From positions 1,969 through 65,968 of the forward strand of contig JBCBSN010000001.1 in assembly GCA_039819225.1 (NCBI GenBank): a DNA stretch of 64,000 nucleotides. The letters run 5' to 3'. The DNA is from Bacteroidota bacterium. GTDB taxonomy: Bacteria > Bacteroidota > Bacteroidia > Flavobacteriales > Flavobacteriaceae. Position numbers and translations under genes: made by a program. Under the pieces are notes generated by a model, which ran no database searches, was not told where the DNA came from, and saw only the letters and a list, made by a program, of their open reading frames with translations. Positions 4,350 to 57,177 of the stretch are shown here, one piece after another. The number at the start of each line of letters is the position of its first letter. Within the stretch, counting starts at the first letter, position 1.

Positions 4350-4364
4350 CAAACTAACTCAAAC

Positions 4365-4811
4365 TCAAATCGGTTTTATCCAAAGCAAATGTTTCCACTT
4401 ATCCCGCTCTTTGAGTACCAAAGCTATATTAATGGCGAAAAAAGCTCCGGTCTGCAGTAGTTCTGCAGGTTCATCCCCTTCCAGAAAAAGATGGAACAAG
4501 AAGATGTGCAAGGTTATGGGTAGCAGGAAGACAGCCCCTACAAAGCCCGTATACTGTATCACCAATAATAACCCGAACAGCAATTCACAAATGCCCAGGA
4601 CCTGCCAAAAATAGCCGGTCTGTTTAGCACCGCTGATGTACAATATTTTTTGTAGGGTACTTTCTTTTGCGGGATCTGTGAACTTTTTCGCCTTTTCCAC
4701 TACTTCCGAAGGGGTGGGAACCGGTTGGCTAAACTTTTGAATGCCACCGTAGATCATAAACCCCCCAAGGATCAAACGTAGCACTACAAAAAGAATGTTT
4801 ACTGCTTTCAT
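4365..4811 (-). CDS. DoxX family membrane protein
   Basis: LRLILGGFMIYGGIQKF and GICELLFGLLL DoxX-type motifs; 4 TM helices. Confidence 0.8.
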   Translation of the reverse strand: MKAVNILFVVLRLILGGFMIYGGIQKFSQPVPTPSEVVEKAKKFTDPAKESTLQKILYISGAKQTGYFWQVLGICELLFGLLLVIQYTGFVGAVFLLPITLHIFLFHLFLEGDEPAELLQTGAFFAINIALVLKERDKWKHLLWIKPI

Positions 4812-4831
4812 TGCTGCAACTTTATGGTGTG

Positions 4832-6385
4832 TTATAGGCGCTCATACGTAAATTGCGGAAAGCCTCTTTCACCTTCGGAATTGGTAAAAGCGGTGAACAG
4901 TAGCTTGTAGTAGTTGCCATCCATGTCCTTCAAAACAAAGTATCTGTCATCCCTAACGGCGGCTACCCCGAATACACTTCGCCATCCACTGCCGATCACG
5001 GCCCTGTCGTTGTAAATAAAAGCGGATTCCTCCACATCGTCCCTGTTAAAATCGGTATAGCTTGGTACATCAAAGTTGGTGATATTGCCATCGCCATCCC
5101 TTTCATACGTGGTAACTTGGTACAATCCGGTACCACCTAAAGTGTTGTGAAGCACATAATCCGAAAAAGTCAATCCGGCTATAGTCGGGGGGCCTCCGAA
5201 ATTCCCAACACCGTAAAAGGAGAAGACCCCCGTAAAATTAAGGTCCCAGGAACCCTTTTCAGGTTCAACGTTTACACTTTGGCCTTCGGTTAAACTGAAA
5301 GCACTAAGATTAAAGCTGTCATTCTTTTCAATGGTGGCCTCGGAAAAGTTTTCGGTCTCGTTTAGGTCGGCATATTGAACGGTATAACTGTTTCCATCCG
5401 TAAGCACCCTAACTTTTAGGAAGCCCCGCTGATCACCGGTCGTGGAAATTGACCCAAGCTCAGCGGACTCAGTAGGGATTTCGTTCCCTAGGCTAACAAT
5501 ATACACGTTGTTTTGATCGGCGGTGGTAGAGACCGCTGCAAAAGCAGTGCCTTCCAACGTTCCCTCCCTGTTGTCCGTAAATACGAGATTTGTGGCTACG
5601 TTGCCGTACTGCGGATACGCTACGGGTAAACCTGCGACCAACTCACCAACGGTGGTAACAGTTACCGTTGCGGGTTGAAAAGCTTGATCAAAGGTGTTCA
5701 TTTTCAGGGCATTGGCAAGGTCGCTGTCTTCCGTGATGGAAAGTATATCCGTAATCCCCTCCAACTCCGCTGCAGCCACCAACAATGAGGGGTTTAAAAA
5801 TACCCTGTTTTCGGCCCCATTGTAAAAAGCGATTTCCCAGGTGTCTCTGCGAACCGCCGTTTGGGTGTTTGAGCTTAAATCTACATAGACTTGGTTAGGT
5901 TGATTGGAACCACCTTGTTCGGCATCAATGACACCACTAATTGCGGCAATGGGGGTAAAACTTACGGTAGACGACGAGGTAATACCATTGGACCAGTCGG
6001 TTTGATCATACCCGTTTAAGGCCAGCGAAACCGTTTTTGTGGTGCCTTCTATGGGGTCTTGCAATTTGGTAAAGGTAATGGTGGCACCAAGGTCGCCCAC
6101 CGCTACAGGTACGGCAATAGTGCCATTACCTCCCGTAGGAAGGGTAGAAAAGTCGGTGCCGTATTCTGCATTATTCCCGGTATATGCTACGGTTATGGTG
6201 CCGGACTCGGTGGCCGCCCTTGAGAAGGTCAAGCTAATTTCTTTATCGGTATCGGCCTCGGACAAACTTACGGTTTCACTACTGAACGATACGGTAAAAT
6301 CTATGAGATCTTCCCCATCATCATCGCCACAGGAAACCATGACGGAGAGAGACATAATCGCACTTAAAAAAAGGTACTTTTTCAT
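4832..6385 (-). CDS. hmuY: HmuY-family lipoprotein with N-terminal Ig/Calx-beta-like domain
   Basis: Lipobox VMVSC. HmuY-type motifs QVYVDLS..WEIAF, SWDLNF and YYKLLFTAF..GERGFPQFTYE. ATG at 6385 is preferred over TTG 6394. Confidence 0.8.
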   Translation of the reverse strand: MKKYLFLSAIMSLSVMVSCGDDDGEDLIDFTVSFSSETVSLSEADTDKEISLTFSRAATESGTITVAYTGNNAEYGTDFSTLPTGGNGTIAVPVAVGDLGATITFTKLQDPIEGTTKTVSLALNGYDQTDWSNGITSSSTVSFTPIAAISGVIDAEQGGSNQPNQVYVDLSSNTQTAVRRDTWEIAFYNGAENRVFLNPSLLVAAAELEGITDILSITEDSDLANALKMNTFDQAFQPATVTVTTVGELVAGLPVAYPQYGNVATNLVFTDNREGTLEGTAFAAVSTTADQNNVYIVSLGNEIPTESAELGSISTTGDQRGFLKVRVLTDGNSYTVQYADLNETENFSEATIEKNDSFNLSAFSLTEGQSVNVEPEKGSWDLNFTGVFSFYGVGNFGGPPTIAGLTFSDYVLHNTLGGTGLYQVTTYERDGDGNITNFDVPSYTDFNRDDVEESAFIYNDRAVIGSGWRSVFGVAAVRDDRYFVLKDMDGNYYKLLFTAFTNSEGERGFPQFTYERL

Positions 6386-6390
6386 AATGT

Positions 6391-8538
6391 TCAATTAAAA
6401 TTTAAGGTGTATAAGAGTTTTAGAAAATAGGATCTACCATTACCAAATAAACGGGCATCACCACCGGAGGCACCATGTGCACCTGCGGGGATGTCCGTTG
6501 CGTTTACGGTAACAATATCCAAGAGATTCCTGGCGCCCAGGGTAACATCAAAGTTTTTAAAGAAAGTTGTACGGATTGAGGCATCCAACCAAGTAAAGGC
6601 ATCTGTCTCGCCAATTTCGCGGCCATTGTTGCCCTCGAAAACATTGAGTGTCCTTCCCCTATGGTTCAACAAAGCGGACAGGGAGGTGTTTATTCTTGGA
6701 AAGCTATACAAAAGGGTAGACTGCAAATTGAAACTCCATAAATAACCGGAGTCGGCACCGTCTTCCAAGGCCGTATTGGTACTGATAAGGCTTGTGCCGA
6801 TGCCCGCCTGCCAATTATTGAAGTCAATTTTGTTGTTAAGGGTAAAGCCTAGTTTTTCTTCGAAATCAACGTTGTCAAAGGTGAACAGGATGCCATCGTC
6901 ATCTTCACTAACTATGCCCGTAATCTTGTTGTCTATATCGAAGTAGAACGAGCTCAAAGTTGATTTCAAGGGCCACTTGTCCCCAATCTTGAAGATATGG
7001 TCGTAGTTCAGAAAGATGGTTATTCCGTCTTCCGGTTGAAGGTTACGATTGCCCTTTACATTGTGATTGGCATCGACAAATTCTTGGAACAATTGGGAAA
7101 AATTTGGGGCTTTGAACGCAGAGGCCAGCGTAATTTTTAATTTGGAATCCTCCAAAAAATTATAAGTAGAAGAGAGTGACCAGAATAAGGCCTGTCCAAA
7201 CTGGGAATTGTTCACCGAACGAAGCCCTGGGAACAGGGACCATTGGTCGTTAAGGTTTAGATCGGCAGTGGCGAAGAAATCATAGTTTTCCAATGTTTCT
7301 TCCACGACATTGGTAGACTGGGCACCCGCCGCAATAGCATCAAATCCCTTTTGCCGGGTAAGCTCATACCCTAAAAGAAGGCCAAAAAACTCGGACTTGG
7401 GCATAATATTGGACACAAAGCCCCGGGAATACAAAATATCACTGGATTGGTCTATCCTGTCAATATTGAACGATTCGATGCCTTGTTGTAAAATGTTGTA
7501 GGTAAACGTTTGATAATTGCGTTCTTGGGTTTGGTAAGATAGCGATACGTTATACCGCGTTAATCCGCGTATGGGCCCCGAAATGTTAAAATTGTTCACC
7601 AATCGGTTAGTGTTGAACCTTGCGTCAGTCGCAGTAGGATTGGGCGTACCATCGGGATTGAGCCTACCATTTATGATACGATCATAGATGGTAAGTGTTT
7701 CATCAAAGTGTTGCAGTTTATAGAAAAGGCTGTGTTTTCCCATTTTGGCATGGACATTTCCAAAAAAGGTCAATTGTTCCTTGGGGTTCCATTCCGTGCC
7801 CCTTAAGGAATCGTTTATGACGATATTGTCTTGTAAATTGACATAATCCCGGCCCTGAAATTCATTATAAAAACCAGCGAAATCGTTTCTGGAAACACCG
7901 AGGGTATAGGATATGGCCGGACTTACTTGGTTGCTAACGTTAAAATTTTGGATATGCCTTCCCTGGTCGGAAAAAGAGAATTCACTGCCAACGGTCTCCT
8001 CTTGTAAAGCACTTTGTATCTTCCATTTGTAATCGCCCTCGATCCCCCTTTTTGTAATGATGTTGATCACCCCCGCCACTGCATTTTCACCATAAAGGAC
8101 TCCGGCCGCACCTTCTATGATCTCGATCCGCTCCGCATCCTCCAAGTTGATTTGCGTAATGTCAATATTATTGCCTATACCGTTATCACTGGCCACCGGA
8201 ATACCGTCGATCAGCACTTTAACATATTCCCCATCAAATCCGAACATACTTATGGTAGATCGTCCCGTTGCAGCGTCGGGCAGTATGGTAATGTTGAGGT
8301 TTTGGGTAAGTATATCCGCAAGGGTATTACCTGCCAATCGCTTAATTCCCTCCTGGTCGATCACATCTACATTGAACAGTTTTTTACTCAATGACATAAC
8401 CTGGCTTTCGCCTATAAGTATTACCTCCTGTAGTCTTTCCATAGGAATGGAATCATTTTCCATGGGAGTTTCCTGGCTAAGAATACTAGCCCCCAGAAAT
8501 CCGGTAAAAATGATGCCCAAAACCCTATTTAGATTCAT
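6391..8538 (-). CDS. TonB-dependent receptor, heme/iron type (HmuR-like)
   Basis: Plug motifs VLIDGIPV and ERIEIIEGAAGVLYGENAVAGVINIITK; C-terminal GRSYFLKLLYTLNFN; directly upstream of the HmuY-family gene. Confidence 0.9.
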   Translation of the reverse strand: MNLNRVLGIIFTGFLGASILSQETPMENDSIPMERLQEVILIGESQVMSLSKKLFNVDVIDQEGIKRLAGNTLADILTQNLNITILPDAATGRSTISMFGFDGEYVKVLIDGIPVASDNGIGNNIDITQINLEDAERIEIIEGAAGVLYGENAVAGVINIITKRGIEGDYKWKIQSALQEETVGSEFSFSDQGRHIQNFNVSNQVSPAISYTLGVSRNDFAGFYNEFQGRDYVNLQDNIVINDSLRGTEWNPKEQLTFFGNVHAKMGKHSLFYKLQHFDETLTIYDRIINGRLNPDGTPNPTATDARFNTNRLVNNFNISGPIRGLTRYNVSLSYQTQERNYQTFTYNILQQGIESFNIDRIDQSSDILYSRGFVSNIMPKSEFFGLLLGYELTRQKGFDAIAAGAQSTNVVEETLENYDFFATADLNLNDQWSLFPGLRSVNNSQFGQALFWSLSSTYNFLEDSKLKITLASAFKAPNFSQLFQEFVDANHNVKGNRNLQPEDGITIFLNYDHIFKIGDKWPLKSTLSSFYFDIDNKITGIVSEDDDGILFTFDNVDFEEKLGFTLNNKIDFNNWQAGIGTSLISTNTALEDGADSGYLWSFNLQSTLLYSFPRINTSLSALLNHRGRTLNVFEGNNGREIGETDAFTWLDASIRTTFFKNFDVTLGARNLLDIVTVNATDIPAGAHGASGGDARLFGNGRSYFLKLLYTLNFN

Positions 8539-8605: not shown

Positions 8606-8639
8606 GCGAAACAATAGATATCAATTAAAACCCACGATT

Positions 8640-10883: not shown

Positions 10884-10885
10884 CT

Positions 10886-13734: not shown

Positions 13735-13739
13735 ATTTT

Positions 13740-15386: not shown

Positions 15387-18350
15387 ATGGGGCCAATGAA
15401 ATGGGTGTTGGGCGCAATATGTCTATGTGTGCCAATGTTTGTAATGGCACAGAACACAATAACCGGTGTGGTAAAGGACAAGGCCTTTGACGAGCCCTTG
15501 CCCGGGGCCAGTGTAGTCATCAAGGGAACTGCCACCGGTACCACTACCGATTTTGACGGCAACTATGAGATTCAGGCCGCTCTGGGGGATATTCTTTTGT
15601 TTTCCTATGTGGGCTTTAAGAGCATAGAAATAGAAGTGGACGGCACTGCCATTGATGTGGCCTTGGAAGAGGATACCGCCCAATTGGACGAGGTAGTCCT
15701 TATAGGGTATGGCTCCACCACCAAAAAGGATGCCACTGGCGCCGTAATCGGTGTTACGGAGGAGGAATTGAACAAGGGCTTTATCGCCTCGCCCCAAGAC
15801 CTTTTAATAGGAAAGGCTGCAGGAGTAAACATTACCACCTCTGGGGGTGCCCCGGGAAGTGGGAGCGAGATCCGCATACGTGGAGGTGCCTCCCTGGACG
15901 CGAGCAATGCTCCTCTGATCATTATAGACGATGTTCCCCTGGATAACTCCAACAATCCCGGATCTAGGAATGTTTTTGATTTTATCAATCCTGCGGACAT
16001 CTCCTCGTTTACCGTACTTAAAGATGCTTCCGCTACCGCTATTTATGGTTCCAGGGCCTCCAATGGGGTTATCATCATTACTACAAAAAAGGGGGTCTCG
16101 GGCGATTTAAAGTTCAATTTTGGCACTTCGGCATCGGTAAGTTCGGTAAAGGAGGATTTGGACGTGCTGAGCGCGGGACAGTTTAGGGACATTATCCAAC
16201 AGCGGTATCCCAATAGGGTATCCGAGCTGGGTAATGCCAGTACGGATTGGCAGGACGAAATCTTTAAAAGTGCGGTGGGTACGGATACGAATTTTAGCGT
16301 AAGGGGCGGTATTTGGGGAATACCCTTTAGGGCCTCCGTGGGCCATACGGAACAAGATGGTATTTTACGCACGGAAGCACTGCAACGGACCACTGCCTCG
16401 GTAAACCTTTCCCCCAAATTGTTCGATGACAAACTGCGGATCCAGATCAATGCCAGGGGTTCGTATAGCGAAAACAATTTTGCGGATACCAATGCCATCT
16501 TCAATGCCATACAGTTTGATCCCACAAGGCCCGTTTTTGATGCGGCCCTTCCAGGTGGTTTCTTTGATTATTACGAACCCAACGGAACTCCTACTGCCAA
16601 TACCGTGGCCAACCCCTTGGCCCTTTTGTTGCTCCGGGAGAACAGGTCCAACGTAAGGCGATTGGTGGCCAATGCCAAATTTGATTATCAATTTCATTTT
16701 TTCCCGGACATTACGGCCACCCTGAACCTTGGGATTGATAAGTCCAATGCGGACGGGGTGGACAATCAACCGGAAACCTTGTCCACGCAGCGGATTACCC
16801 AGGGCCTGTTCAGCAATTATGGACAGGACGAGGAGAACAAGCTTTTGGACTTCTACCTAAAATATACCAAGGAACTGGAAAAGTGGAATACACGTTTTGA
16901 CCTAACGGCGGGCTATTCTTACCAGAATTTTTTTGACAATCAGTTCACCAGCTCCGTTAGGGGAGATGGTATAGGAGGTACCACCATAGACGATATTATC
17001 CTTGAGAGCAATCTGCAGTCCTATTTTGGCCGGGCCAATTTGATCTTGGCGGATAAGTACCTCTTCACTTTTACGTATAGGAGGGACGGGTCTTCGCGTT
17101 TCGGAGGGGACAACAGATGGGGCAATTTCCCGGCCGCCGCCTTTGCTTGGAACGTGAGCGACGAGAACTTTCTAAAGGATTCCAAAAGCATATCCAACCT
17201 AAAATTGCGCCTGGGTTGGGGAGTAACCGGGCAACAGGATGTGATACAGGGGAACGATACCCAACCCTATCTGCCCCAATTTGCGCCCAGTCTTAACGGG
17301 GCCTCCGTACAGTTTGGACAGGATGCCAATGGAAATCCCATTTTTGTAAGTTCGTTAAGGGCACAGCCTTTTGATGCCAATATTAAGTGGGAAGAGACCA
17401 CTACCTATAACATAGGACTGGATTTTGGACTTTTTGACAATGTGCTCAGTGGAGCGGTGGAATTGTATTACCGAGAAACCGAAGATCTTTTAAGTACCGT
17501 AAATATCCCTATTGGCAGCAACCTTTCCAACCGTTTGCCTACCAATATCGGGAGTCTTACCAATCAAGGGGTAGAGGTTACCCTGAATGCAAAGATTCTA
17601 GATCGGGAAGATCTCACTTGGGACCTGGGATTCAACTATGCCTATAATGAAAATACGGTAGATCAACTGTTCCTTACCGACAATGCAGGGGGCGCGGGCA
17701 TTCCGGTGGCCGGAACGTTGCTTGTGGGTTTTGGCGGGGATGACGGTGCCCAGTACCATATTATAGACGAACCCACTAGAAGTTACCTGGTCTATGTGCA
17801 GGCCTACAATTCGGACGGGCTTCCTATACCGGGAACGGTAGTGGACCTTAATGGGGACGGGTTTATCAACAGCTTGGATAGGCGACCCTTCCAACAGGCG
17901 GCCCCCCTGGTAAATTTAGGACTTAACAGCAGGGTGAATTGGAAAAACTGGGACATGAGCTTTTCAATGAGGGCCAGTCTGGGCAATTATAATTACAATG
18001 GGATAGAAGTTCAGAACGGGACTTTTGCCAATGTAGATATAGGTCAAGATCTTAGGAATGTTACCAGTGCCACGGTGATAAATGGTTTTGATGATTACAT
18101 AGACGAGGTAACCTTCTCCGATTTTTTCGTACAGGATGCCTCCTTTCTCCGTTTGGACAATATTAATTTGGGATACACTTTTGGAAATGTCTTTAATGAC
18201 AGCTCTCGGTTACGGGTATTTTCCACCTTGCAAAATGTCCTGGTGGTCACCGACTATGAGGGACTAGATCCCGAGGTGCCCAATGGCATTGACAGAAATA
18301 TCTTTCCAAGGCCTTTTATTACCCAACTGGGATTGTCACTTGATTTTTAA
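15387..18350 (+). CDS. susC: SusC/RagA TonB-dependent glycan transporter (alpha-glucan type)
   Basis: NPADISSFTVLKDASATAIYGSRASNGVIIITTKKG; YRRDGSSRFG; KWEETTTYNIGLDFG; C-terminal YEGLDPE..FPRPF..GLSLDF. Confidence 0.95.
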   Translation: MGPMKWVLGAICLCVPMFVMAQNTITGVVKDKAFDEPLPGASVVIKGTATGTTTDFDGNYEIQAALGDILLFSYVGFKSIEIEVDGTAIDVALEEDTAQLDEVVLIGYGSTTKKDATGAVIGVTEEELNKGFIASPQDLLIGKAAGVNITTSGGAPGSGSEIRIRGGASLDASNAPLIIIDDVPLDNSNNPGSRNVFDFINPADISSFTVLKDASATAIYGSRASNGVIIITTKKGVSGDLKFNFGTSASVSSVKEDLDVLSAGQFRDIIQQRYPNRVSELGNASTDWQDEIFKSAVGTDTNFSVRGGIWGIPFRASVGHTEQDGILRTEALQRTTASVNLSPKLFDDKLRIQINARGSYSENNFADTNAIFNAIQFDPTRPVFDAALPGGFFDYYEPNGTPTANTVANPLALLLLRENRSNVRRLVANAKFDYQFHFFPDITATLNLGIDKSNADGVDNQPETLSTQRITQGLFSNYGQDEENKLLDFYLKYTKELEKWNTRFDLTAGYSYQNFFDNQFTSSVRGDGIGGTTIDDIILESNLQSYFGRANLILADKYLFTFTYRRDGSSRFGGDNRWGNFPAAAFAWNVSDENFLKDSKSISNLKLRLGWGVTGQQDVIQGNDTQPYLPQFAPSLNGASVQFGQDANGNPIFVSSLRAQPFDANIKWEETTTYNIGLDFGLFDNVLSGAVELYYRETEDLLSTVNIPIGSNLSNRLPTNIGSLTNQGVEVTLNAKILDREDLTWDLGFNYAYNENTVDQLFLTDNAGGAGIPVAGTLLVGFGGDDGAQYHIIDEPTRSYLVYVQAYNSDGLPIPGTVVDLNGDGFINSLDRRPFQQAAPLVNLGLNSRVNWKNWDMSFSMRASLGNYNYNGIEVQNGTFANVDIGQDLRNVTSATVINGFDDYIDEVTFSDFFVQDASFLRLDNINLGYTFGNVFNDSSRLRVFSTLQNVLVVTDYEGLDPEVPNGIDRNIFPRPFITQLGLSLDF

Positions 18351-18366
18351 CAATTAGCACTAGCGC

Positions 18367-19986
18367 ATGAGGAGCAAACACCACTTTATGATCATACTGG
18401 CATTTTTGTCGATACTGGTATTTTACGGTTGTACGGACGATCTGGACGCTATTGATACCAATAACCTTAACTCGGAAAATGTTTTTGAGGATGAAGAGAG
18501 CTATATTCAATTTCTAGCAAAGTTATACGCCGGGTTGGACCAGACCGGGCAGCAGGCCCCGATAGGCCAACCGGATTTGATCGGATTTACCGAGGGAAGT
18601 TCCAGTTATATACGCCTGTGGTGGGCCTTGAACGAATTTCCCGCCGATGAACTGAAATGGCGTTTTAACGACCCCGGACTGCGGGCCATCGTTTTTCAGT
18701 CATGGACTTCGGGGAACGACTTTTTTAGTGTTATCTACAGTCGCATATTCTTTCAGATTTCCCAGACCAATGAGTTTCTGAGGCAAACGGCACCTGAGGT
18801 TTTGGACGGTAGGGGCGTATCCGAAAACTTGCGATCGCAAATAGACATCTATAGGGCGGAGGCACGGTTTCTAAGGGCCATGGCCTACTATCATACGTTG
18901 GAACTCTTTGGAGGTAACGTTCCCTTTGTCACCGAGGAGGACAGTCCCGGGGCCTTTTTTCCGGAACAGACCACCGGCGCCCAACTCTTTGCCTATGTGG
19001 AATCCGAACTTTTGGAAATTGAGGGCCAACTTGTAGCGGTAGGACAACATGAGTATGGCAGGGTGGACAAAGGTGCCGCGTGGACCCTTTTGGCAAAGCT
19101 TTACCTAAACGCGGAGGTGTTTATTGGGGAAGGCAGATATGGGGACTGCATTACATATTGCAATGAGGTCCTTAACGCCGGGTATGTCCTGGAACCGCAA
19201 TATGCCGATCTCTTTAAGGCGGACAACAACCGCTCCAACGAAATTATTTTTCCGGTAACCTTTGATGGCGTCAACTCAAGATCTTTTGGGGTAATGTATT
19301 CTTTGATAAATGGAACATTGGATAGCAATATCATACAAAGCGATCCGGAGGCCTTTGGGACAAATACGGGAGGTTTTGCCGCCCTTACCGCTAAGGAAAC
19401 CTTTGTAGATCTTTTTGAGTTTATGGGCGACGATCCGTTCAATGATAGTCCGGATGTCAGGGCATCCTTCTTTTTTAAGGACGGGCACTCCGTGGATATC
19501 CCTTCGGAACCCATTGGCAGTTCCTTTCAGGAGGGCTTTGGCTATACCAAATTTAGGAATATAAAACGGGACGGCACCCCTGGACAAAGTAGTGATTTCC
19601 CGGATGTGGATTTTCCCTTGTTCAGGTTGGCGGATGTGCATTTGATGTACGCGGAGGCCTTTTTACGGGGAGGTGGGGGATCCGAGTCCGAAGCCCTGGA
19701 CTTGATAAATGACCTTAGGGAAAGGGCCTATGGCGACACTTCCGGAAATGTGGCTACCTTGGATTTGGATTTTATTATTGACGAACGTGGCAGGGAGCTG
19801 GGTTGGGAAGGACACCGGAGGATGGATTTGGTAAGGTTTGGCCGCTTTACCGGGGGCGATTATCTATGGGATTGGAAAGGCGGTGCCCAGAACGGCACTT
19901 CGATTAGCGGGCATTTGCGAATCTTTCCCCTGCCTTCTTCCGATATTTCCGTAAACCCTAACTTGACCCAAAACCCAGGATATTAA
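18367..19986 (+). CDS. susD: SusD/RagB lipoprotein, starch-SusD-like
   Basis: Lipobox FYGC; EARFLRAMAYY; FRLADVHLMYAE; ERGRELGWEGHRRMDLVRFG; WDWKGG..NPNLTQNPGY, typical of alpha-glucan SusDs. Confidence 0.92.
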   Translation: MRSKHHFMIILAFLSILVFYGCTDDLDAIDTNNLNSENVFEDEESYIQFLAKLYAGLDQTGQQAPIGQPDLIGFTEGSSSYIRLWWALNEFPADELKWRFNDPGLRAIVFQSWTSGNDFFSVIYSRIFFQISQTNEFLRQTAPEVLDGRGVSENLRSQIDIYRAEARFLRAMAYYHTLELFGGNVPFVTEEDSPGAFFPEQTTGAQLFAYVESELLEIEGQLVAVGQHEYGRVDKGAAWTLLAKLYLNAEVFIGEGRYGDCITYCNEVLNAGYVLEPQYADLFKADNNRSNEIIFPVTFDGVNSRSFGVMYSLINGTLDSNIIQSDPEAFGTNTGGFAALTAKETFVDLFEFMGDDPFNDSPDVRASFFFKDGHSVDIPSEPIGSSFQEGFGYTKFRNIKRDGTPGQSSDFPDVDFPLFRLADVHLMYAEAFLRGGGGSESEALDLINDLRERAYGDTSGNVATLDLDFIIDERGRELGWEGHRRMDLVRFGRFTGGDYLWDWKGGAQNGTSISGHLRIFPLPSSDISVNPNLTQNPGY

Positions 19987-20012
19987 AACACGAATTACAT
20001 AGAATTATCATA

Positions 20013-20192
20013 GAACTCATTTAGACTTTTTGGAACAATGCGAAAATTAAGGATTTTGTGCCCTCTAGAAGGCTTTTTTGAGTTGCATTACCTGTCCCGC
20101 TCTGCGGGAGCAGGGCTACGGAAGGAAAAAAAGATAAAAAGCGGGTGCAAAAGAATCATTTTTTAGCTGTTCAAAAAAGTCTAAATGAGTTC
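20013..20192. repeat. MITE-like element: 25-bp inverted repeats around a Flavo-1-like core carrying a REP insertion
   Basis: gaactcatttagactttttggaaca (20013-20037) / tgttcaaaaaagtctaaatgagttc (20168-20192), 1 mismatch. Core aaggc...gcat[tacctgtcccgctctgcgggagcagg]gctacgg...aaaaaaag. Confidence 0.65.
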
Positions 20193-20276
20193 ATAAAACA
20201 AATACAGATGAAACGAGCATTAATAAACCCGCCTGAACCGAACGGGCCGGTTTTAGACATTTTTTCTCAAACTTGT

Positions 20277-20324
20277 GCCGAGCGTAGTCGAGGTAAGGTA
20301 ATGTTTATCCCGAATTCTCGGGAT
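20277..20324. repeat. Two Flavobacterial REP-type motifs
   Basis: gccgagcgtagtcgagg (20277-20293) and the palindrome atcccga-attc-tcgggat (20307-20324). Confidence 0.55.
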
Positions 20325-20404
20325 TAATGCGAGAGCGTAGCGGTTGCATAGGCTCTAAATTTTATAATTAACTTAAAATCAAATAATTATAAAGATTTAA
20401 ACGT

Positions 20405-21511
20405 ATGAAAAGGATATATATGAAAGCATTGGTGCTACTTACTGGATTACTGGCCGTTTCCTGTGACCAAGATGATGGAATAAACATTGTCTTGCAGCCC
20501 GATCCGGAAGGTATTGAGTTTACAAGTTCCTTGTCCTCCAACTACCTTTTGTCCTCCCTGGCCTCATCGAATATAGCGGAACGGTTGGTCTGGAACCCTA
20601 TAGATTTTGGAGCCCCTATAGAGGCTACTTTTAGGCTGGAGGCTTCAACGGACCAAGAATCCTTTTCGGAAATGGGCACAAGTTCCGAGAACAATATCGC
20701 CATTATAGCGGAGGATTTGTTGGAACTTGCCGCTGAGTTGGGCCTGGACGAGGACGCAGGCACAACGGACGGGGAAGGTAATCCCAATAACAAGGGAACG
20801 GTTTATCTCAGGGTAGTGGGCATTTCCGGTAGTAACAATGCCGCCAATGCGGAGCAAGTAGTTTCCGAAGTACTGGCCATGAATATAGAGCTTATTGAGT
20901 CCGGGGACGGTCCTCTGGATCCCATTGTTCTGGCCACTTTCGGCGTGGTTGGGGAACAGGTGAACAATTGGGGCGAAACCGCGGATTTGCCGCTGTACAG
21001 CAGGGATAGCGGAGTGCTTTTTGCAAGTGTGGACGTGCCGCCCAACAGTCCTTTTAATATTAGGGAAAACAACGATTGGGTTACTAGCTACGCTCCGGAC
21101 GGGGATACCGCGTTGCAATTAAATGCGTTCGGGGTCTCCTTTAGTGTTCCGGAAGATGGCCCGCATTTGGTACGGTTCGACTTGAATGACCTCACTTATG
21201 AAATCGAAAAAAGGGACTCCTGGGGCCTGGTGGGCGAAAACATCAACAACTGGGGCGAGGGCTTTGATATTAGATTGACAGAAGACCCCGATCAACCCGG
21301 ACTTTGGATAGCCTTAGGTGTGGAAGTGCCTGCGGGCCCGGCCAATTTTAGATTGAACAATGAATGGACCACCACTTTGGCACCCGTTGAGGGTTCGGAT
21401 TTTCTAGAGTTTAACGTGTTCGGGGCCTATGAACTGGAGGCCGGAATATATAATATTACCTTGGATATAAGGGATGAGGATGCGATAACCGGGGAATTGG
21501 AACTTCAATAA
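20405..21511 (+). CDS. SusE/SusF-like surface lipoprotein with tandem carbohydrate-binding domains
   Basis: Lipobox LAVSC; SusE-type N-domain; two repeats FGVVGEQVNNWG / WGLVGENINNWG, each followed by F.IR.NN.W. Confidence 0.85.
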   Translation: MKRIYMKALVLLTGLLAVSCDQDDGINIVLQPDPEGIEFTSSLSSNYLLSSLASSNIAERLVWNPIDFGAPIEATFRLEASTDQESFSEMGTSSENNIAIIAEDLLELAAELGLDEDAGTTDGEGNPNNKGTVYLRVVGISGSNNAANAEQVVSEVLAMNIELIESGDGPLDPIVLATFGVVGEQVNNWGETADLPLYSRDSGVLFASVDVPPNSPFNIRENNDWVTSYAPDGDTALQLNAFGVSFSVPEDGPHLVRFDLNDLTYEIEKRDSWGLVGENINNWGEGFDIRLTEDPDQPGLWIALGVEVPAGPANFRLNNEWTTTLAPVEGSDFLEFNVFGAYELEAGIYNITLDIRDEDAITGELELQ

Positions 21512-21574
21512 GTAGCCTATTTAGGACAAACAAATGATAGTAACGTTTTGAGTTAGTTAAATAGTTCTTGACCG

Positions 21575-21601
21575 ACCTGGCCTTAAAAAAAATGGCCAGG
21601 T
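21575..21601 (+). terminator. Rho-independent terminator after susCDE
   Basis: acctggcc / ggccaggt stem followed by a long T-tract. Confidence 0.75.
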
Positions 21602-21797
21602 TTTCTTTTTTTCTTTAAATTGAGAGGCCTCTATTATAAGGGCCTGTTTTGGAATGTATGATTTGCCCCCGAAACACCAGGCCATTTTATAGGCTATTTT
21701 CCCTGTTTGCCGGACAGGCGGGAAAAACGGTTCACATATTTAAAAACAGGTGCTAGGTAGGCGACCTGTTTCCAAAGATTTTCGACTAAAACCGTAG

Positions 21798-50995: not shown

Positions 50996-52000
50996 ATGGA
51001 TGAAAATAGGTTAAAGGAACTGTTGGATAACTATCTAAGCGGCAAGGGTTCCCCAGAGGAACGGCGACTTCTTGATTCCCTTTTCGAAAGCTATAAGGGC
51101 TATGCCCCTAAAGGGGAAATCTCTCCTTTGGAGATGGAGACCATGGATAGGGAACTGCTCTTTAAGGAAATTAAAGAGAGGATTCACAAGGTGGAAAACG
51201 CAACACACGGAAAAACGATACGCCCCTATTTGAGGTGGTGGGCCGTGGCGGCATCCATTTTACTTTTGGTGGGCATGGGATGGGGACTTTTATCAAACGA
51301 GAAGGATTTGAATCCTTTAGACACCGTTGTCATGCAATCCAAAAGCACCGATTGGGGGCAAAAATCCAATATCGTTTTGGCTGATGGTACAAAGGTGCGC
51401 CTTAACTCGGGTAGTACATTGGATTTTCCCCAAGACTTTAAGGGAAAAACGGAGCGGAAGGTACGTTTGCAAGGAGAGGCCTTTTTTGAGGTAACCCCAA
51501 ATCCGGACAAACCTTTTTTGATTGAGACAGATCAACTGACTACCAAAGTCCTTGGGACTTCCTTTAACATAAGGGCCTATGCCGAAGAAGACCAAGCGCT
51601 GGTGACCGTGGCGACCGGAAAGGTACAGGTGTTCAAGGAGAAATCGATAAAAGAAACGGCTAGGGTAGACTTGACCCCAAATGAGCAGGCCCTATTCCGC
51701 AAAACCCAGGATACGCTTGAAAAAAAGACCGTAGCGATCGGGCCGCATATCGATTGGAAAAACGGCATTATCCATATTACCGACCATACCTTGGGCGAAG
51801 CAGCTATGATTTTAGAAAACTGGTACGGTATAGAGATTCACTTTTCAAATGAGGAAATAGCGGGCTGCCACCTTACCGCCGCCTATGATAACCAAAGCCT
51901 AGCGGTAGTTATGGAAAGTATTGCTCGGGTAAAAGGACTGGAATACCATATGGAAGATGGGGGCAAACGTGTGGTATTTAGCGGTAAATGCAAGGATTAA
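50996..52000 (+). CDS. FecR-family anti-sigma factor
   Basis: ATG 50996 preferred; single TM; LADGTKVRLNSGS, LQGEAFFEV, VLGTSFNI, DWKNG. Confidence 0.92.
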   Translation: MDENRLKELLDNYLSGKGSPEERRLLDSLFESYKGYAPKGEISPLEMETMDRELLFKEIKERIHKVENATHGKTIRPYLRWWAVAASILLLVGMGWGLLSNEKDLNPLDTVVMQSKSTDWGQKSNIVLADGTKVRLNSGSTLDFPQDFKGKTERKVRLQGEAFFEVTPNPDKPFLIETDQLTTKVLGTSFNIRAYAEEDQALVTVATGKVQVFKEKSIKETARVDLTPNEQALFRKTQDTLEKKTVAIGPHIDWKNGIIHITDHTLGEAAMILENWYGIEIHFSNEEIAGCHLTAAYDNQSLAVVMESIARVKGLEYHMEDGGKRVVFSGKCKD

Positions 52001-52076
52001 GAACTCAAGACGAATTCAAATTACATATAACTAAAAAACGAAGCCTATGGGATAATATGAAAATGAGAAAAAAGAA

Positions 52077-52115
52077 GGCAGCCTGTACAACTTTGGCGAG
52101 TGCGGACAGACTGCC
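52077..52115 (+). promoter_or_regulatory. Structured leader hairpin (CTTTGGCGAG apex) upstream of the transducer susC
   Basis: ggcagcctgt / acagactgcc stem (1 mismatch) with an inner ac-tttggcga-gt hairpin, preceded by an A-tract and 50 nt before the ATG. Confidence 0.55.
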
Positions 52116-52165
52116 GGTAGTTCAATAATTAAGGATATCATAACCATTAAACATTTTGTGAAAGT

Positions 52166-55100
52166 ATGAATTCACTAACAATTAAACAATTTATCAAGTT
52201 GGCATTCCATTCCTTCTGTTTGCTTCTGGTAGTGGCACTTTTGAATCCTGTATTTGGTTCGGAGGCAAGGGGGCAACGTTTGGAGAACATAACCGTGAAT
52301 CTCAATTCCAGAAATGCCTCGGTCATCGAGGTATTAGAGGATATAGAGAATCAGACAGCTTTCAGCTTTGTATATGACAGAAAGGTAAACCGCCTAAGGA
52401 ATACTTACGATTTGGACTACCGTAACGTTTCGTTGCGATCGGTTTTGGAGGTATTGGCGAAGGATGCAAAACTCATTTTTAGACGGCTGAACGAAACCAT
52501 TGCCATCGAAGTCACACCGACCGCACAAGATCGTGTAGTGGAATTGCAGGCTATTACCATTAGCGGATTGGTCCTGGACGCGGAGGGGAACCCCTTGCCC
52601 GGGGCAAGTGTAGTGGAGGCAGGCACTACTAATGGTACCACAACGGATTTTGATGGCATGTTTATGATAGAGGTACAAAGTGGTATTGCTTTCCTGGAGA
52701 TATCCTATGTAGGGTTTATTCCGCAGCAGATAAAGGTAGGTAACCAAGAGTATCTGGAAATAACCTTGATCGAGGACGATTTTCAATTAAGTGAAGTGGT
52801 TGTGGTGGGCTACGGTTCTATAAACAGGGCCAATGTCACCAGTGCTATATCCTCAATTGCGTCGAACGATTTTGAGGATCTTCCGGTGACCAGTATTGAG
52901 CAGGCCATTGCCGGCCAACTTGCAGGTGTAGAGATAACCCAAAACTCGGGGCAGCCCGGTGCCGCGAATGGGATAACCATACGAGGAGTAAGTACTATTA
53001 CTGCAGGGGCCCAACCCCTGGTCGTCGTAGATGGGTTGGCTTTGGCCGAAACCACATCTTTGAATACCATCAATCCAAATGATATCGAATCGGTGGAAGT
53101 GCTAAAGGATGCCGCTTCCGCAGCCATTTATGGTTCAAGGGGGGCCAATGGCGTTATCCTCATTACCACCAAGAAGGGTCGTAAAGGCAAACCCCAATTC
53201 AGCTTTAATTCCTTCGTAGGGTTCCAGGAGGTAGCCGAAAAATTGGATCTGCTCAACGCCTATCAACATGCGGAGTTCAGTAGGGATGCTAGGAACAATT
53301 ACTATTTGCAGTTTGATGATGGTACGTTTTCAACAAACGATGACACCGCTACCAGGGAGGCCAATGCGGCAGCACTGGGCTTTAATCCCAGGAAAGCGAT
53401 TATACCCAGTTTCATGCAACCCTACCTGGATGGGGTGCAAGGTCTTACGGATACGGATTGGCAAGACGAACTGTTCCGAACGGCCTTGATCCAAAATTAT
53501 CAGCTTGGGGTAACCGGTGGGAGCGAAAATTCTTCCTATTTCATTTCCGGGGATTATTTTGACCAAGAGGGTATTGTTGAGGGTACGGATTTTGAACGTT
53601 TTAGTTTCCGCGCCAATTTTGAGACCCGATTTTCCGATAAATTCAAATTTGGGATCAATTTGGCACCCTCGCTGCAACAGGAGAATGTAGTTGAGACCGG
53701 GTTTAGCAATGGCCCCATAAATACCTTATATACGGCACTTCCCTATTTCCCTGTCCGAAACGAAGATGGTTCCTTGGCCATAAGCGATCAGACCATAGCG
53801 GCCACGGAAGGGGATCAGGCGCGAACCGAAAATCCGGTAGCTTTGGCTACATTGAACAAAGATTTTCGAAGAACCTTCGTTTTCCAAGGGGGTACTTTTT
53901 TGGAATATGAGGTAATCCCCGGTCTTAAGGCCAAAACATATTGGGGGATAGATATAACCAGTAGGAGAAGGGACGTGTTCCGACCTTCTTCCGTGGGGAG
54001 AAGAAATAATCCCGCCCCAGTAGATGCATTCGGGCTAAATTCATCCTTGGACAGGATAAACTGGTTAATAGAGAATACGGTTGATTACACAAAGATTTTT
54101 GGGGAGAAGCATAATTTCAATGCCCTTTTCGGGCTTACGTATCAAGAACAGACCGAGGATTTCAATGAAACTCGGGCTATTGGTTTTCCAAATGATTTGG
54201 TCGAAACCCTAAATGCCGGTATTGTAGATAGAGAAGCCGCATTTAGTCGTAAAAACACCTTGGTTTCCTATTTGGCCAGGGTCCAATATGATTATGATGG
54301 AAAGTATTTGTTGGCCGCGGCGATACGTCGGGATGGTTCCTCACGCTTTGGGGCGAACAACAGATTTGGAACATTTCCGTCGCTCTCTGCGGGTTATAGA
54401 ATAAGCGATGAATCCTTTTTCCCCAAGTCGGATTTTTTGAGCAACCTAAAAATTAGGGCCAGTTGGGGTTTGGCCGGGAACAATCAAATAGGGGATTTCG
54501 CCGCCCAAGCCCTGCTGGAAGAATCCAACGCCATTATCAATGGCGGTATTGCCAATGGACTTTCTACATCCACTGCGCCAAATGCAAATTTGGGCTGGGA
54601 ACAGACCAGTACCTTGGATTTTGGTTTGGATTTTGGATTTTTCAAAAATCGGTTGTCCGCCAGTTTCGATTATTATGTAGCCACCACGGATGACCTTTTA
54701 TTGGAAGTACCGGTTCCCGCCCATAGCGGATTTACCACTTCATTGCAAAATATTGGGAAGGTCGAAAATCGGGGTTTTGAAGCTACCATCAGGGCCAATT
54801 ATGAGCTGGGGCAATTAAGGGCGGTCACAAACCTAAATTTTTCCACCAACCAAAACGAAGTATTGGAATTGGGGCCGGGCCAAGAGGAAATAATCGTAGG
54901 GGGACGTTCAATTACCAGGCTAGGAGGGGAACTAGGAGCCAATTACGGATATGCGACAGATGGGATTTTTACCTCCCAGCAGGAAATTGATAGTAGGCCA
55001 AGCCTGCCCAATGCCCAAGTTGGGGAATACATATATGTAGATGCCAATGGGGATGGTGAAATAAATGCGGACGATAGGGTAGAACAAGGGTCGGTTTTTC

Positions 55101-55609
55101 CGGATTACTCCATCGGATTGAACCAAAGCTTCAGGTATAAAAATTTTGACCTCGGAATAGTAGTCCAAAGCGTGCAAGGAGTCACTATCCATAACCGATC
55201 CTCCAGCGTTCAGTTGTTTAATCCGGAAGGATGGAGCAACCAATCCCTGGAATACTTTAACAACTATTACACCCCGGAACGAGGGGAAAACGCCATCTAT
55301 GCGCGACCCAATTCCATTCCTAGGGACAATGGTTTTTATAGGGAGACGGATTTGTTGAAGGATGATGGGTCTTTTACACGGATCAGGAACATCACCCTGG
55401 GCTATACCTTGCCCAATTCCGTTGCCAAAGCATTGGATATTGTATCACTTCGGGTATATCTAAGTTCCAAGAACCCCTTCACATTTACGGATTTTAGGGG
55501 ATTCAACCCAGAGCAAAGATCGGGGGGAGCCTTAAGCCCGGTGGTCAATGATTGGGCCAACTATCCCCTGGAGCGGTCATTTGTGCTTGGTTTTAATTTG
55601 ACATTTTAA
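52166..55609 (+). CDS. susC: SusC-like TonB-dependent transducer with N-terminal STN signalling domain
   Basis: IENQTAFSFVY STN-type region; NPNDIESVEVLKDAASAAIYGSRGANGVILITTKKG; IRRDGSSRFG; YPLERSFVLGFNLTF. Confidence 0.95.
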   Translation: MNSLTIKQFIKLAFHSFCLLLVVALLNPVFGSEARGQRLENITVNLNSRNASVIEVLEDIENQTAFSFVYDRKVNRLRNTYDLDYRNVSLRSVLEVLAKDAKLIFRRLNETIAIEVTPTAQDRVVELQAITISGLVLDAEGNPLPGASVVEAGTTNGTTTDFDGMFMIEVQSGIAFLEISYVGFIPQQIKVGNQEYLEITLIEDDFQLSEVVVVGYGSINRANVTSAISSIASNDFEDLPVTSIEQAIAGQLAGVEITQNSGQPGAANGITIRGVSTITAGAQPLVVVDGLALAETTSLNTINPNDIESVEVLKDAASAAIYGSRGANGVILITTKKGRKGKPQFSFNSFVGFQEVAEKLDLLNAYQHAEFSRDARNNYYLQFDDGTFSTNDDTATREANAAALGFNPRKAIIPSFMQPYLDGVQGLTDTDWQDELFRTALIQNYQLGVTGGSENSSYFISGDYFDQEGIVEGTDFERFSFRANFETRFSDKFKFGINLAPSLQQENVVETGFSNGPINTLYTALPYFPVRNEDGSLAISDQTIAATEGDQARTENPVALATLNKDFRRTFVFQGGTFLEYEVIPGLKAKTYWGIDITSRRRDVFRPSSVGRRNNPAPVDAFGLNSSLDRINWLIENTVDYTKIFGEKHNFNALFGLTYQEQTEDFNETRAIGFPNDLVETLNAGIVDREAAFSRKNTLVSYLARVQYDYDGKYLLAAAIRRDGSSRFGANNRFGTFPSLSAGYRISDESFFPKSDFLSNLKIRASWGLAGNNQIGDFAAQALLEESNAIINGGIANGLSTSTAPNANLGWEQTSTLDFGLDFGFFKNRLSASFDYYVATTDDLLLEVPVPAHSGFTTSLQNIGKVENRGFEATIRANYELGQLRAVTNLNFSTNQNEVLELGPGQEEIIVGGRSITRLGGELGANYGYATDGIFTSQQEIDSRPSLPNAQVGEYIYVDANGDGEINADDRVEQGSVFPDYSIGLNQSFRYKNFDLGIVVQSVQGVTIHNRSSSVQLFNPEGWSNQSLEYFNNYYTPERGENAIYARPNSIPRDNGFYRETDLLKDDGSFTRIRNITLGYTLPNSVAKALDIVSLRVYLSSKNPFTFTDFRGFNPEQRSGGALSPVVNDWANYPLERSFVLGFNLTF

Positions 55610-55637
55610 TATTGACGATTCAAAGATTTTTAAAGAA

Positions 55638-57059
55638 ATGAAAAAGCTTTTACATACATATATTTCAATGCTGATGCTGACCGCGATCTTCGTAGGTTGC
55701 GAAGATCGGTTGGAGGTAAATCCAATTTCGGAAGCCAGTGCGGCCGGTTTTTTTGAGACCGAGGCCGATATTGAGCAAGGCGTGGTTTCTGCCTATGACG
55801 CCTTGCAGGAACAAGGCCAATACGGTTTTAACTTCATGTTCCTTATGGAGATAAGGGCAGATGACGCTTTTGTTGAGAGCCCTACAAACAGCAACGGGGC
55901 CCAAGGGGATATGGACTTGTTCCAAGTTTCCCCGGATAACTTTCGGATTCGGGATTCCTGGAACGGTTGTTATAATGGGATTCAAAGGTGCAATGTGGTT
56001 CTGAATAGGATCGATGCGGTTGAGATGGAAGCTACCTTAAAAAATACCCGGATAAGCGAAGTCAAGTTTGTTAGGGCATTAACCTATTTCAATTTGGTTC
56101 GCTTGTGGGGTAACGTGCCCTTAGTTTTGGATGAGACTGAAGATCCCTTTGATGCGTTTACCATTGGAAGGGCACCGGTGGCGGAAGTATATGGTCAGAT
56201 TATTGCGGATCTAAACGATGCCGTTTCCAATCTGCCCCAAGCCAACGATATTGGAAGGGCCAACAGAGGTGCAGCACAAACGCTATTGGGCAAGGTACAT
56301 CTTACCCTCGGTAATTGGGAGGAGGTCAGTACTGTTTTACAACAGGTTTCCGGATTCAGTTTACAGCCCAACTTTGCGGACAATTTTGGGATAGCCAATG
56401 AAAATGGAATTGAATCCATTTTTGAAGTTCAGTTCAGGGCAGGAAATGGTGAGGGGAGTTTATACCCCAACCAAGTAGCTCCCGTCGGTTCTGGGGAAGA
56501 GCTTTTGAACGGTATCGGTAATCAGAGAGGGGAGAATATTCCTTCCAATGCGTTATTCGATTCTTTTGAGCCAGGGGATTTAAGACGTGATGTGTCCATA
56601 GGGGTGTTATCGGATGGTACTACGAAATATGCAAATAAGTTGATCGATATACCTATACTTGACAATGACTCCGACCTTAATATCATTGTATTTAGATATG
56701 CGGATGTATTGCTCATGTTGGCCGAAGCTCTTAATGAACAGGCCTATACTCCGGACGGGGAAGCGTTCAATTTGCTGAACCAGATACGAAATAGGGCGGG
56801 GCTGCCCTCCTTGACTTCCGCCAATTTGCCCGATCAAGCTTCGTTTAGGGATGCTGTGTTGGAAGAAAGGCGACATGAGTTTGTATCCGAAAACCAGCGT
56901 TGGTTTGATCTGGTAAGAACAGGAAGGGCTATTGAGGTGATGAATTCCAGTACGGATATATTTACGGTAAGCGAGTTCCAGTTGATCTATCCCATTCCCC
57001 TGGAAGCCATTGATGCCATCAATAATCCGGACATTTTTCCACAGAATCCCGGATATTAA
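55638..57059 (+). CDS. susD: SusD/RagB lipoprotein
   Basis: Lipobox FVGC; EVKFVRALTYFNLVRLWG; RYADVLLMLAEA; ERRHEFVSENQRWFDLVR; QNPGY. Confidence 0.93.
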   Translation: MKKLLHTYISMLMLTAIFVGCEDRLEVNPISEASAAGFFETEADIEQGVVSAYDALQEQGQYGFNFMFLMEIRADDAFVESPTNSNGAQGDMDLFQVSPDNFRIRDSWNGCYNGIQRCNVVLNRIDAVEMEATLKNTRISEVKFVRALTYFNLVRLWGNVPLVLDETEDPFDAFTIGRAPVAEVYGQIIADLNDAVSNLPQANDIGRANRGAAQTLLGKVHLTLGNWEEVSTVLQQVSGFSLQPNFADNFGIANENGIESIFEVQFRAGNGEGSLYPNQVAPVGSGEELLNGIGNQRGENIPSNALFDSFEPGDLRRDVSIGVLSDGTTKYANKLIDIPILDNDSDLNIIVFRYADVLLMLAEALNEQAYTPDGEAFNLLNQIRNRAGLPSLTSANLPDQASFRDAVLEERRHEFVSENQRWFDLVRTGRAIEVMNSSTDIFTVSEFQLIYPIPLEAIDAINNPDIFPQNPGY

Positions 57060-57177
57060 GATGAGAAGAATATATAGTTTTTGAAAACCCCGGAACCCGG
57101 GTTCAACTTGGGAAATTTAATTGAAGAATCTTGTTTTCATAATTGGAAGTTTGTTTGAGTTAGTTGAGTAGGCAATG

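Follow-up and report, generated by a model that had tools for sequence, protein, structure and literature searches.

Marine Flavobacteriaceae feed on polymers, algal polysaccharides among them, by means of SusC/SusD uptake systems, the transcripts and proteins of which rank with the most abundant of bloom-associated communities. We know of post-transcriptional control of SusC/SusD loci only from gut Bacteroides (FopS, GibS, RbpB) and of none described for the marine family; to our knowledge, the Bacteroidota are also a phylum without ProQ. Here we analyze a 64,000-nt stretch of a Flavobacteriaceae genome (contig JBCBSN010000001.1; the window), in which the 12-mer TTTGAGTTAGTT is the core of a longer element that precedes the terminators of TonB-dependent transporter operons in marine Flavobacteriaceae. 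The closest known system is that of FopS and GibS with RbpB. In B. thetaiotaomicron, FopS and GibS are multicopy small RNAs (sRNAs) whose conserved 5′ part is single-stranded and is followed by a terminator, and which repress susC translation at the leader; they are bound by an RRM-1 protein, RbpB regulates polysaccharide utilisation loci (PULs), and Hfq is not known in Bacteroidota (PMC11697453). RbpB binds single-stranded RNA, and its in-vitro motif, GUAGGAUA, is composed of G, U and A only (bioRxiv 10.1101/2021.04.27.441718).

The element shares several properties with FopS and GibS. It occurs in the same phylum, in many copies, as a conserved single-stranded stretch followed by a terminator hairpin, and has a functional tie to the expression of SusC and PULs; a member of FopS likewise derives from a 3′ untranslated region (UTR). 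The single-stranded part of FopS is bound by an RRM-1 protein, and the likeness on this point would be one of composition only. However, FopS RNAs are mostly independent genes with their own promoters and a common 41-nt motif, reportedly conserved within Bacteroidaceae, whereas the element described here, a (T/G)AGTT repeat about 19 nt long, is embedded in Flavobacteriaceae operons behind susD or the final gene. The search against Rfam recommended by the initial annotation of the window returned no match at gathering score in the window (Rfam 15), and scans of the three sites at E<=10 yielded no recurrent family. The only Bacteroides sRNA models listed, BTnc231 and BTnc060, scored 11-17 bits at these sites against cut-offs of 80-229 (the FopS name in this release is unconfirmed). 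Literature searches by topic and by literal sequence returned no earlier description of the motif, and we could not find the conserved 3′ element in previous work; it is apparently undescribed.

There are exactly three exact copies of TTTGAGTTAGTT in the window, counting both strands (Table 1). All three are in sense orientation, 3′ of the last stop codon and 5′ of a stable hairpin and T-run. Exact search and Pfam bore out the initial annotation on the positions of the copies, on their location between last stop codon and intrinsic terminator at each site, on the gene contexts (TBDR-HmuY-DoxX, where TBDR denotes a TonB-dependent receptor, SusCDE with a SusE-like third gene, and SusCD), and on the lack of the motif at the strong bidirectional terminator at 15116. 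Its motif-to-hairpin distances of 2, 16 and 12 nt were corrected to 1 nt at site 1, 15 nt at site 2 and 4-11 nt at site 3, the last depending on how the base of the stem is drawn. At every site a stable G+C-rich hairpin runs directly into a U-run, the hallmark of intrinsic terminators. The folded 86-102 nt segments of the three sites have energies of -24 to -29 kcal/mol, and the hairpins scored alone -16 to -26 kcal/mol (about -25.7 kcal/mol for that of site 1). The DoxX stop codon TGA (4367-4365, minus strand) lies inside the first unit of site 1, as part of an extra TTTGAG unit. At site 3, a GDPD gene on the strand of the operon starts at 57239, ~30 nt past the terminator.

The number of copies in the window is in itself weak evidence. 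The initial annotation gave a chance expectation of ~0.01, which holds for a 12-mer named beforehand but is too optimistic for a motif chosen post hoc. We found 21 distinct 12-mers that occur at least three times in the window, where Markov simulations give 5-10 by chance. TTTGAGTTAGTT is the sole 12-mer present in three different intergenic regions (the window has 6.3 kb of intergenic DNA), and 4.4-6.1% of simulations yield some 12-mer common to three intergenic regions, nearly all of them A/T-rich. The in-window count alone is therefore suggestive and only modestly significant, and this simulated frequency is what can be said for the copies having arisen by chance, or being neutral remnants passed on when operons duplicated. 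That the motif is far more than chance follows from the common orientation, the proximity to terminators and, above all, the comparative data.

We selected relatives by scanning with the site 3 SusC protein and taking one genome per species, which gave 80 loci and 1.55 Mb of DNA (loci and contigs are numbered with the prefix L). The closest SusC relative, from Flagellimonas onchidii (L003), is 72% identical. The exact 12-mer occurs 13 times in the 80 loci, in all 13 cases on the susC strand and nearly always ~1.5 kb beyond the end of susC, i.e. after susD; a hairpin and T-run follow 12 of the 13 copies, the exception being L063. The strand bias and terminator proximity that the initial annotation had proposed to check genome-wide are observed in these 80 loci. 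The consensus of the instances extends to (A)TAGTTAGTTTGAGTTAGTTT, which is free of C, and profile searches located degenerate copies at the same position in L022, L015, L058 and L031.

Alignment of eight orthologous 3′ UTRs from Flagellimonas, Allomuricauda and Spongiimicrobium (alignment A1) revealed that 18 of the 19 motif columns of AGTTAGTTTGAGTT(A/G)GTTT are invariant. In the same UTRs, the stretch from the stop codon to the motif is rich in indels and substitutions and cannot be aligned, and the hairpin loop varies. Since the motif is invariant in orthologous UTRs whose flanks have diverged, the element is under purifying selection. Recognizable versions of the motif are retained in the site 3 orthologues, including L003. 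The site 1 orthologous TBDR-HmuY(-DoxX) operons, fetched via HmuY homologues, show the exact 12-mer and a hairpin directly after HmuY in Arenibacter palladensis and a degenerate version after DoxX in Flagellimonas sp. CMM7. The site 1 orthologues that carry the motif include L202 and L203; it was not found in the TBDR-HmuY orthologous operons of Euzebyella and Winogradskyella. The SusC proteins of motif-bearing operons are mutually only ~40% identical, yet the motif is identical and the adjacent UTR not alignable, which a neutral relic does not explain. Together with the placement of every copy in the relatives on one strand and the enrichment of SusD among contigs selected by motif (below), this conservation effectively refutes chance or relic, which we now hold to be extremely improbable.

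We then quantified the association with operon type and lineage. Genes were called in the 80 loci and the window, SusD and TBDR proteins were classified using hidden Markov models built from the window proteins, and every downstream region was searched with a purpose-written strict finder of hairpins with T-runs; a generic terminator scan gave matches not above those in its shuffled controls. A terminator was considered motif-bearing if at least two AGTT lay within 40 nt 5′ of the hairpin. This was the case for 13/23 SusD terminators and 10/68 other-gene terminators of Flavobacteriaceae, most of these ten belonging to genes directly after susD or to window sites 1 and 2. Only 1/132 terminators qualified in loci from outside the family (Bacteroides, Capnocytophaga, Saprospiraceae, Cytophagales and others). 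The element is thus present in Flavobacteriaceae and essentially absent from the other Bacteroidota loci. Its association with TBDR/SusD operons is significant for all terminators (Fisher p=1e-4) and when these are collapsed to protein clusters (p=0.003), values that are conservative because the classifier under-counts PUL membership. The carriers are mostly susC-susD operons, some of which include one more lipoprotein gene, as well as TBDR-HmuY(-DoxX) operons. Other lineages may have analogous elements before their susD terminators: a C-poor, UAGU-rich sequence, GTAGTAGTTTGGATAGATAAACGTAGTAAGTAGTTTT, stands before the susD terminator in L026 ('Bacteroidia bacterium', not Flavobacteriaceae; SusD gene at 13149-14534).

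The geometry of the element is informative about the level at which it acts. The stop codon and the motif are separated by 2-181 nt (median 43), and the motif and the hairpin by 0-19 nt (median 10). The next gene is on the same strand after 19 of the 23 motif-bearing terminators, often 30-60 nt past the hairpin, and the distance from hairpin to next gene ranges from 22 to 255 nt; the motif also occurs at convergent gene ends (L015, L044, L058 and L203). Because the distance to the hairpin is constrained, that to the stop codon is not, and a same-strand gene usually follows, we regard motif and hairpin as one module located at intercistronic or terminal 3′ ends. The strand exclusivity, the fixed relation to the hairpin, the indifference to the distance from the stop codon and to the next gene, and the convergent gene ends argue for a function at the RNA level.

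A DNA-level element would be the opposite case, either a regulator site, with AGTTAGTTT as a direct repeat of 10-bp period, or a box that resembles a promoter and serves the gene downstream. The consensus does have a 10-bp periodicity, the short distance at which a same-strand gene often starts would suit a promoter, and TAGTTTGA is similar to TAnnTTGY, a box reported in F. psychrophilum (SM5 box, PMC9723704). However, the position is fixed relative to the hairpin and not to the next gene, the motif also occurs at convergent gene ends, upstream columns are not conserved and include no conserved -33 element, and the 30-40 nt that can separate the hairpin from the next start codon leave no room for a promoter. 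RNA depth moreover falls past the hairpin in the one transcribed instance (L134, below) and does not rise. We consider a DNA-level role highly improbable. A Bacteroidota sigma-A promoter (-7 TAnnTTTG with -33 TTTG) was also compared and rejected, TAGTTTGA being one base off register.

The element itself consists of 2-5 (T/G)AGTT units with a spacing of 4-6 nt and essentially no C, and the number and spacing of the units differ between operons. Relative to other terminator-upstream regions, AGTT is enriched 14-fold and TAG 4.5-fold, and TAA shows no enrichment (0.8-fold). Folding of motif-bearing segments gave robust terminator hairpins and no conserved pairing partner for the motif, with different predicted pairings at every site; the Flagellimonas group alone has a small stem between motif and spacer. 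Hairpin sequences are unrelated among the three sites and the orthologues, and a REP- or MITE-like repeated element (repetitive extragenic palindrome or miniature inverted-repeat transposable element) was rejected on these grounds. The triplets TAG, TAG, TGA and TAG in TAGTTAGTTTGAGTTAG raise the alternative of a three-frame stop trap: ribosomes that have run past the stop codon or slipped out of frame on these heavily translated mRNAs would be released in time to keep the terminator hairpin from melting. No frame lacks a stop in the consensus, at site 2 or at site 3; a step of 4 or 5 nt from one unit to the next shifts the frame, and stop codons free of C would account for the composition. 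Nevertheless, a stop trap has no need of the conserved GTT after AG and should favor TAA, which is cheaper in AT-rich DNA; site 1 covers two frames only, long UTRs already have many stops ahead of the motif, and the lineage and operon specificity is left unexplained. A stop trap is accordingly very unlikely.

Selection by motif alone gave an independent view of the upstream genes. Scanning metagenomes for the 16-mer TTAGTTTGAGTTAGTT returned at least 120 stretches. Many of the matches listed are unrelated, lying in eukaryote-like repeats and coding regions, and about a quarter of those listed show the complete arrangement, in which the motif is followed within 0-20 nt by a strong hairpin and then a T-run. 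We tested 18 upstream ORFs (open reading frames), 14 with a strong terminator and 4 with a weaker or no predicted hairpin; among these, from the matches listed, the upstream gene encodes SusD in 11/18 cases, a TonB-dependent receptor in one and an ASPIC/FG-GAP protein in one. Viral contigs served as a control, with 45 matches to the same 16-mer and a terminator following in one unique sequence only. This sole viral case of full architecture (L218 and L239, identical in sequence, GC 0.31) may come from a phage of a flavobacterial host. A further metagenome stretch (L158, 929-1014) has at least six tandem copies of a 14-nt unit, AGTTTGAGTTAGTT, and then a hairpin, downstream of a formyltransferase gene.

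Two groups of matches differ from this arrangement. In L090 (803-860) and L188 (3465-3520; both on the motif strand), motif and terminator are found without an ORF for 200-400 nt upstream, and the motif is preceded by a small conserved hairpin, GCCCTAATAAAGGG; these may be stand-alone small RNA genes. The exact reverse complement of the 16-mer forms the leader that abuts the start codon of a recurrent phage gene (AACTAACTCAAACTAAA-ATG ACT GTT GAT TTC...), carried by the viral contigs L207, L212, L214, L220, L223, L229, L237 and L247 and also by L115, L189, L192 and L197. The anti-motif therefore serves elsewhere as a translation leader.

Evidence of transcription comes from L134, a metagenome instance comprising the 3′ end of a SusD gene, the motif (462-477) and a hairpin (491-532), which we found in ten metatranscriptome runs; the RNA evidence consists of assembled contigs of standard metatranscriptome libraries, not reads. 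RNA contigs traverse susD and the motif and end at 529/530 in X9, X12 and X15 and at 518, followed by adapter, in X21. The X13 RNA contig ends at 580, with lower depth beyond the hairpin, whereas DNA contigs continue straight past it. Since RNA contigs cross the motif, and those of four of the ten runs stop within the hairpin, the motif belongs to the L134 susD transcript, and the hairpin appears to be a real 3′ end, leaky or complete. The window itself was found in no RNA run, L146 was not found in the RNA runs tried, and L152 was found only as scattered fragments.

These contigs also bear on the proposal that the motif is a processing signal, namely a cluster of RNase E/G-type endoribonuclease sites, cleavage of which would take away the hairpin that protects the mRNA, or detach susCD from the cistrons that follow. 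The enterobacterial cleavage rule is R-N↓W-U-U, and AG↓UUU fits it. The motif is single-stranded, U-rich, repeated and beside a hairpin, and its location is mostly intercistronic. Against this, the L134 RNA contigs run unbroken from susD across the motif to the hairpin in several runs, and the sequence conservation and operon specificity exceed the needs of a degenerate cleavage rule. Processing sites of this type are unlikely, though less so than the stop trap or the DNA-level role.

Strand exclusivity, UTR conservation, the recovery of SusD after selection by motif only and the RNA contigs together uphold the proposal of the initial annotation that a sequence-specific element lies at the 3′ end of TonB-receptor/lipoprotein operons. 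The observation of TTTGAGTTAGTT is genuine, as that of a conserved, lineage- and operon-specific 3′ element. For its role the initial annotation named an RNA-binding-protein site, a termination or processing signal, or an sRNA seed; the anatomy of the repeat units leans toward the first of these.

The main rival of the reading that we prefer, a protein-binding site (below), is that sRNAs embedded in or derived from 3′ UTRs form a family with the motif as their seed. The G/U-rich motif would pair with A/C-rich and G-poor susC-type leaders, in trans on other PULs or in cis, and repress their translation in the manner of FopS in Bacteroides; motif and hairpin would be released by processing, or be active while on the mRNA. 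The order of conserved single-stranded stretch and terminator is that of FopS (PMC11697453). In Flavobacteriaceae, pairing with the motif is stronger for TBDR leaders than for other leaders (-10.1 vs -7.4 kcal/mol, Mann-Whitney p=5e-9), with no difference for shuffled motifs, and motif-complementary words occur in 55% of non-redundant TBDR leaders vs 18% of others (p=4e-4). The leader GATTAACCACAATTAAC of the Flagellimonas group, read by hand, is complementary to the motif of its own operon at 13/16 positions, and the best leader match within the window is the site 2 susC. The motif copies of L090 and L188, with no nearby upstream ORF, and the phage leader made of the exact reverse complement also agree with a seed. 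However, only a weak pairing signal survives control for redundancy and leader composition (mean z=-0.6, p=0.04), and lineages that lack the motif show it about equally strongly, so ACTAAC-like leaders are better seen as a general SusC feature than as a co-evolved partner. The site 1 and site 3 leaders in the window pair poorly, variable unit number and spacing between operons would be unusual for a seed, and a short transcript was not seen in the assembled RNA contigs. On balance we view the sRNA seed as a doubtful explanation, albeit the most credible of the alternatives.

Two observations concern the SusC leaders themselves. Across the Bacteroidota (-60..-1; L002-L081 and the window) they are poor in G, and ACTAAC/CAAAC-type words are found in 44-55% of them vs ~20% of other genes. 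Directly upstream of susC, a conserved hairpin and leader (...AAAAAAATCGGAAAATGC...CTTCCGATTGG...GATTAACCACAATTAACACTATAAAAGT-ATG) is present at ~9880-10000 in L003, L006, L014, L017, L022, L029, L030, L035, L036 and L070 and at ~52060-52165 in the window, and is common even to paralogous PULs with SusC proteins ~40% identical.

Other known 3′-end and terminator-associated elements resemble the module in part. In the Hfq-binding module of enterobacterial 3′-UTR-derived sRNAs such as CpxQ and SroC, a U-rich stretch is followed by the terminator hairpin and a U tail. Here too, the terminator of the mRNA itself is immediately preceded by a U-rich single-stranded element, and the parent mRNA shares the module, but the element is sequence-specific (AGUU units) and not merely U-rich, and is confined to one operon class. 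Bacillus TRAP recognizes GAG/UAG triplets with 2-3 nt spacers, and HutP recognizes UAG with 4 nt spacers. The repeated (U/G)AG triplets of the element, single-stranded and by an intrinsic terminator, would likewise suit a multimeric protein that modulates termination; the sites of TRAP and HutP differ in being located in 5′ leaders, where they overlap alternative structures, whereas the element is at the 3′ end. A site of strictly TRAP/HutP type was rejected, both by spacing (a period of 4-6 nt, i.e. spacers of 1-3, with 2-5 units and a conserved UU after AG) and by structure (the motif lies 0-19 nt outside the stem, with no conserved alternative structure). Intercistronic stabiliser hairpins, e.g. 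the REP between malE and malF, similarly place a structure after the gene of an abundant binding or transport protein, and a comparable role could explain differential expression within PULs. In REP, however, whole palindromes are repeated, whereas here only the single-stranded motif is common and each hairpin has its own sequence.

Taking these comparisons together with the geometry, we favor, at even confidence, a recognition element in single-stranded RNA that acts jointly with the terminator and is probably the site of a protein. The element would work as RNA, as a single-stranded docking site displayed beside the terminator hairpin. Its likeliest partner would be a multivalent or multimeric single-strand RNA-binding protein, for which an RRM-1 protein of RbpB type is the obvious candidate. 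This partner would determine what becomes of the 3′ end, through the stability of the abundant susCD message, the balance between termination and read-through into the next gene, or processing. A multivalent RNA-binding protein is favored over a fixed seed because the repeat units vary in copy number.

Several points weigh against a protein site. The partner is a candidate only, and the in-vitro motif of RbpB resembles the element in composition (G, U, A) and no further. Within one genus group the core 19-mer is strictly conserved, beyond the needs of a degenerate protein site, so that base-pairing fits this conservation equally well. The RNA evidence is from one homologous instance (L134), and its contigs are blind to 5′ ends, processing and small RNAs. 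Finally, the motif does not compensate for weak hairpins: compared with others, hairpins that follow a motif have greater stability, a higher G+C content and a shorter length, by which a role as helper of weak terminators was rejected, and the terminators are if anything stronger.

The coordinates of the three sites and of some neighboring features are given in Table 1. Ahead of the site 3 motif, but past the susD stop codon, is a second small hairpin, CCCCGGAACCCGGG, and the metagenome instances L088, L094 and L143 likewise have one hairpin before the motif and another after it. The 13-mer CTTTTTTGAGTTG has TTTGAGTT in common with the motif; its first copy is in the site 2 operon, just past a weak hairpin within the 418 nt that separate susD from the SusE-like gene, and the other two are within ORFs or on the strand opposite genes. 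The first copy of ATACCTAAATCC is directly downstream of the site 1 terminator and upstream of the next gene. Two ORFs lie upstream of the site 3 susC, for which a sigma/anti-sigma label is unverified.

Table 1 Positions of the motif copies, their terminators and operons, and nearby features in the window.
Feature	Position	Strand	Basis
Site 1, exact 12-mer	4352-4363	-	exact match search
Site 1, motif cluster TTTGAGTTTGAGTTAGTTT	4351..4369	-	sequence reading and profile search
Site 1, intrinsic terminator: hairpin GGGGCCGGG...CCCGGCCCC (4350-4315), then TTTTT (4314-4310)	4310..4350	-	
Operon ended by site 1: TonB-dependent receptor (6391-8538), HmuY-family (4832-6394), DoxX (4365-4811)	4365..8538	-	Pfam
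Site 2, exact 12-mer	21547-21558	+	exact match search
Site 2, motif cluster GTTTTGAGTTAGTTAAATAGTT	21545..21566	+	
Site 2, intrinsic terminator: hairpin GACCTGGCC-loop-GGCCAGGTT (21574-21602), then TTCTTTTT	21574..21610	+	
Operon ended by site 2: SusC-like TBDR (15387-18350), SusD-like (18367-19986), SusE-like (20405-21511)	15387..21511	+	Pfam
Site 3, exact 12-mer	57154-57165	+	exact match search
Site 3, motif cluster AGTTTGTTTGAGTTAGTTGAGTAG	57148..57171	+	
Site 3, intrinsic terminator: hairpin core GGGGCCTGTTTATGCAAATAGGCCCT (57177-57202), extended stem from 57170, T-run TTTTGTTTT	57170..57210	+	
Operon punctuated by site 3: SusC-like TBDR (52166-55609), SusD-like (55638-57059)	52166..57059	+	Pfam
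Small hairpin CCCCGGAACCCGGG before the site 3 motif	57089-57104		
ORFs upstream of the site 3 susC	50312-50854, 50996-52000		
13-mer CTTTTTTGAGTTG, three copies	20073-20085, 34253-34265, 40465-40477	+	
ATACCTAAATCC, three copies	4297-4308, 26264-26275, 43529-43540	-	

The element is short and searchable. It offers a bait for the RNA-binding protein or RNA that partners it, helps to annotate PUL boundaries and the ends of operons, and gives a handle on the differing expression of susCD and the genes downstream. If it is only the site of a stabiliser, it would still be a new conserved RNA motif with a defined distribution. More speculatively, and with less confidence than we give to either the protein site or the sRNA seed, the (U/G)AGUU repeats and their terminators may form a shared regulatory RNA module at the 3′ end of every SusCD/TonB-transporter transcript; when one uptake system is expressed, a released or displayed 'anti-leader', together with an RRM-type chaperone, would tune the translation of other susC mRNAs. 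If true, this would provide marine Flavobacteriaceae with a built-in priority network among polysaccharide utilisation loci, parallel to FopS-RbpB but wired into the operons themselves.

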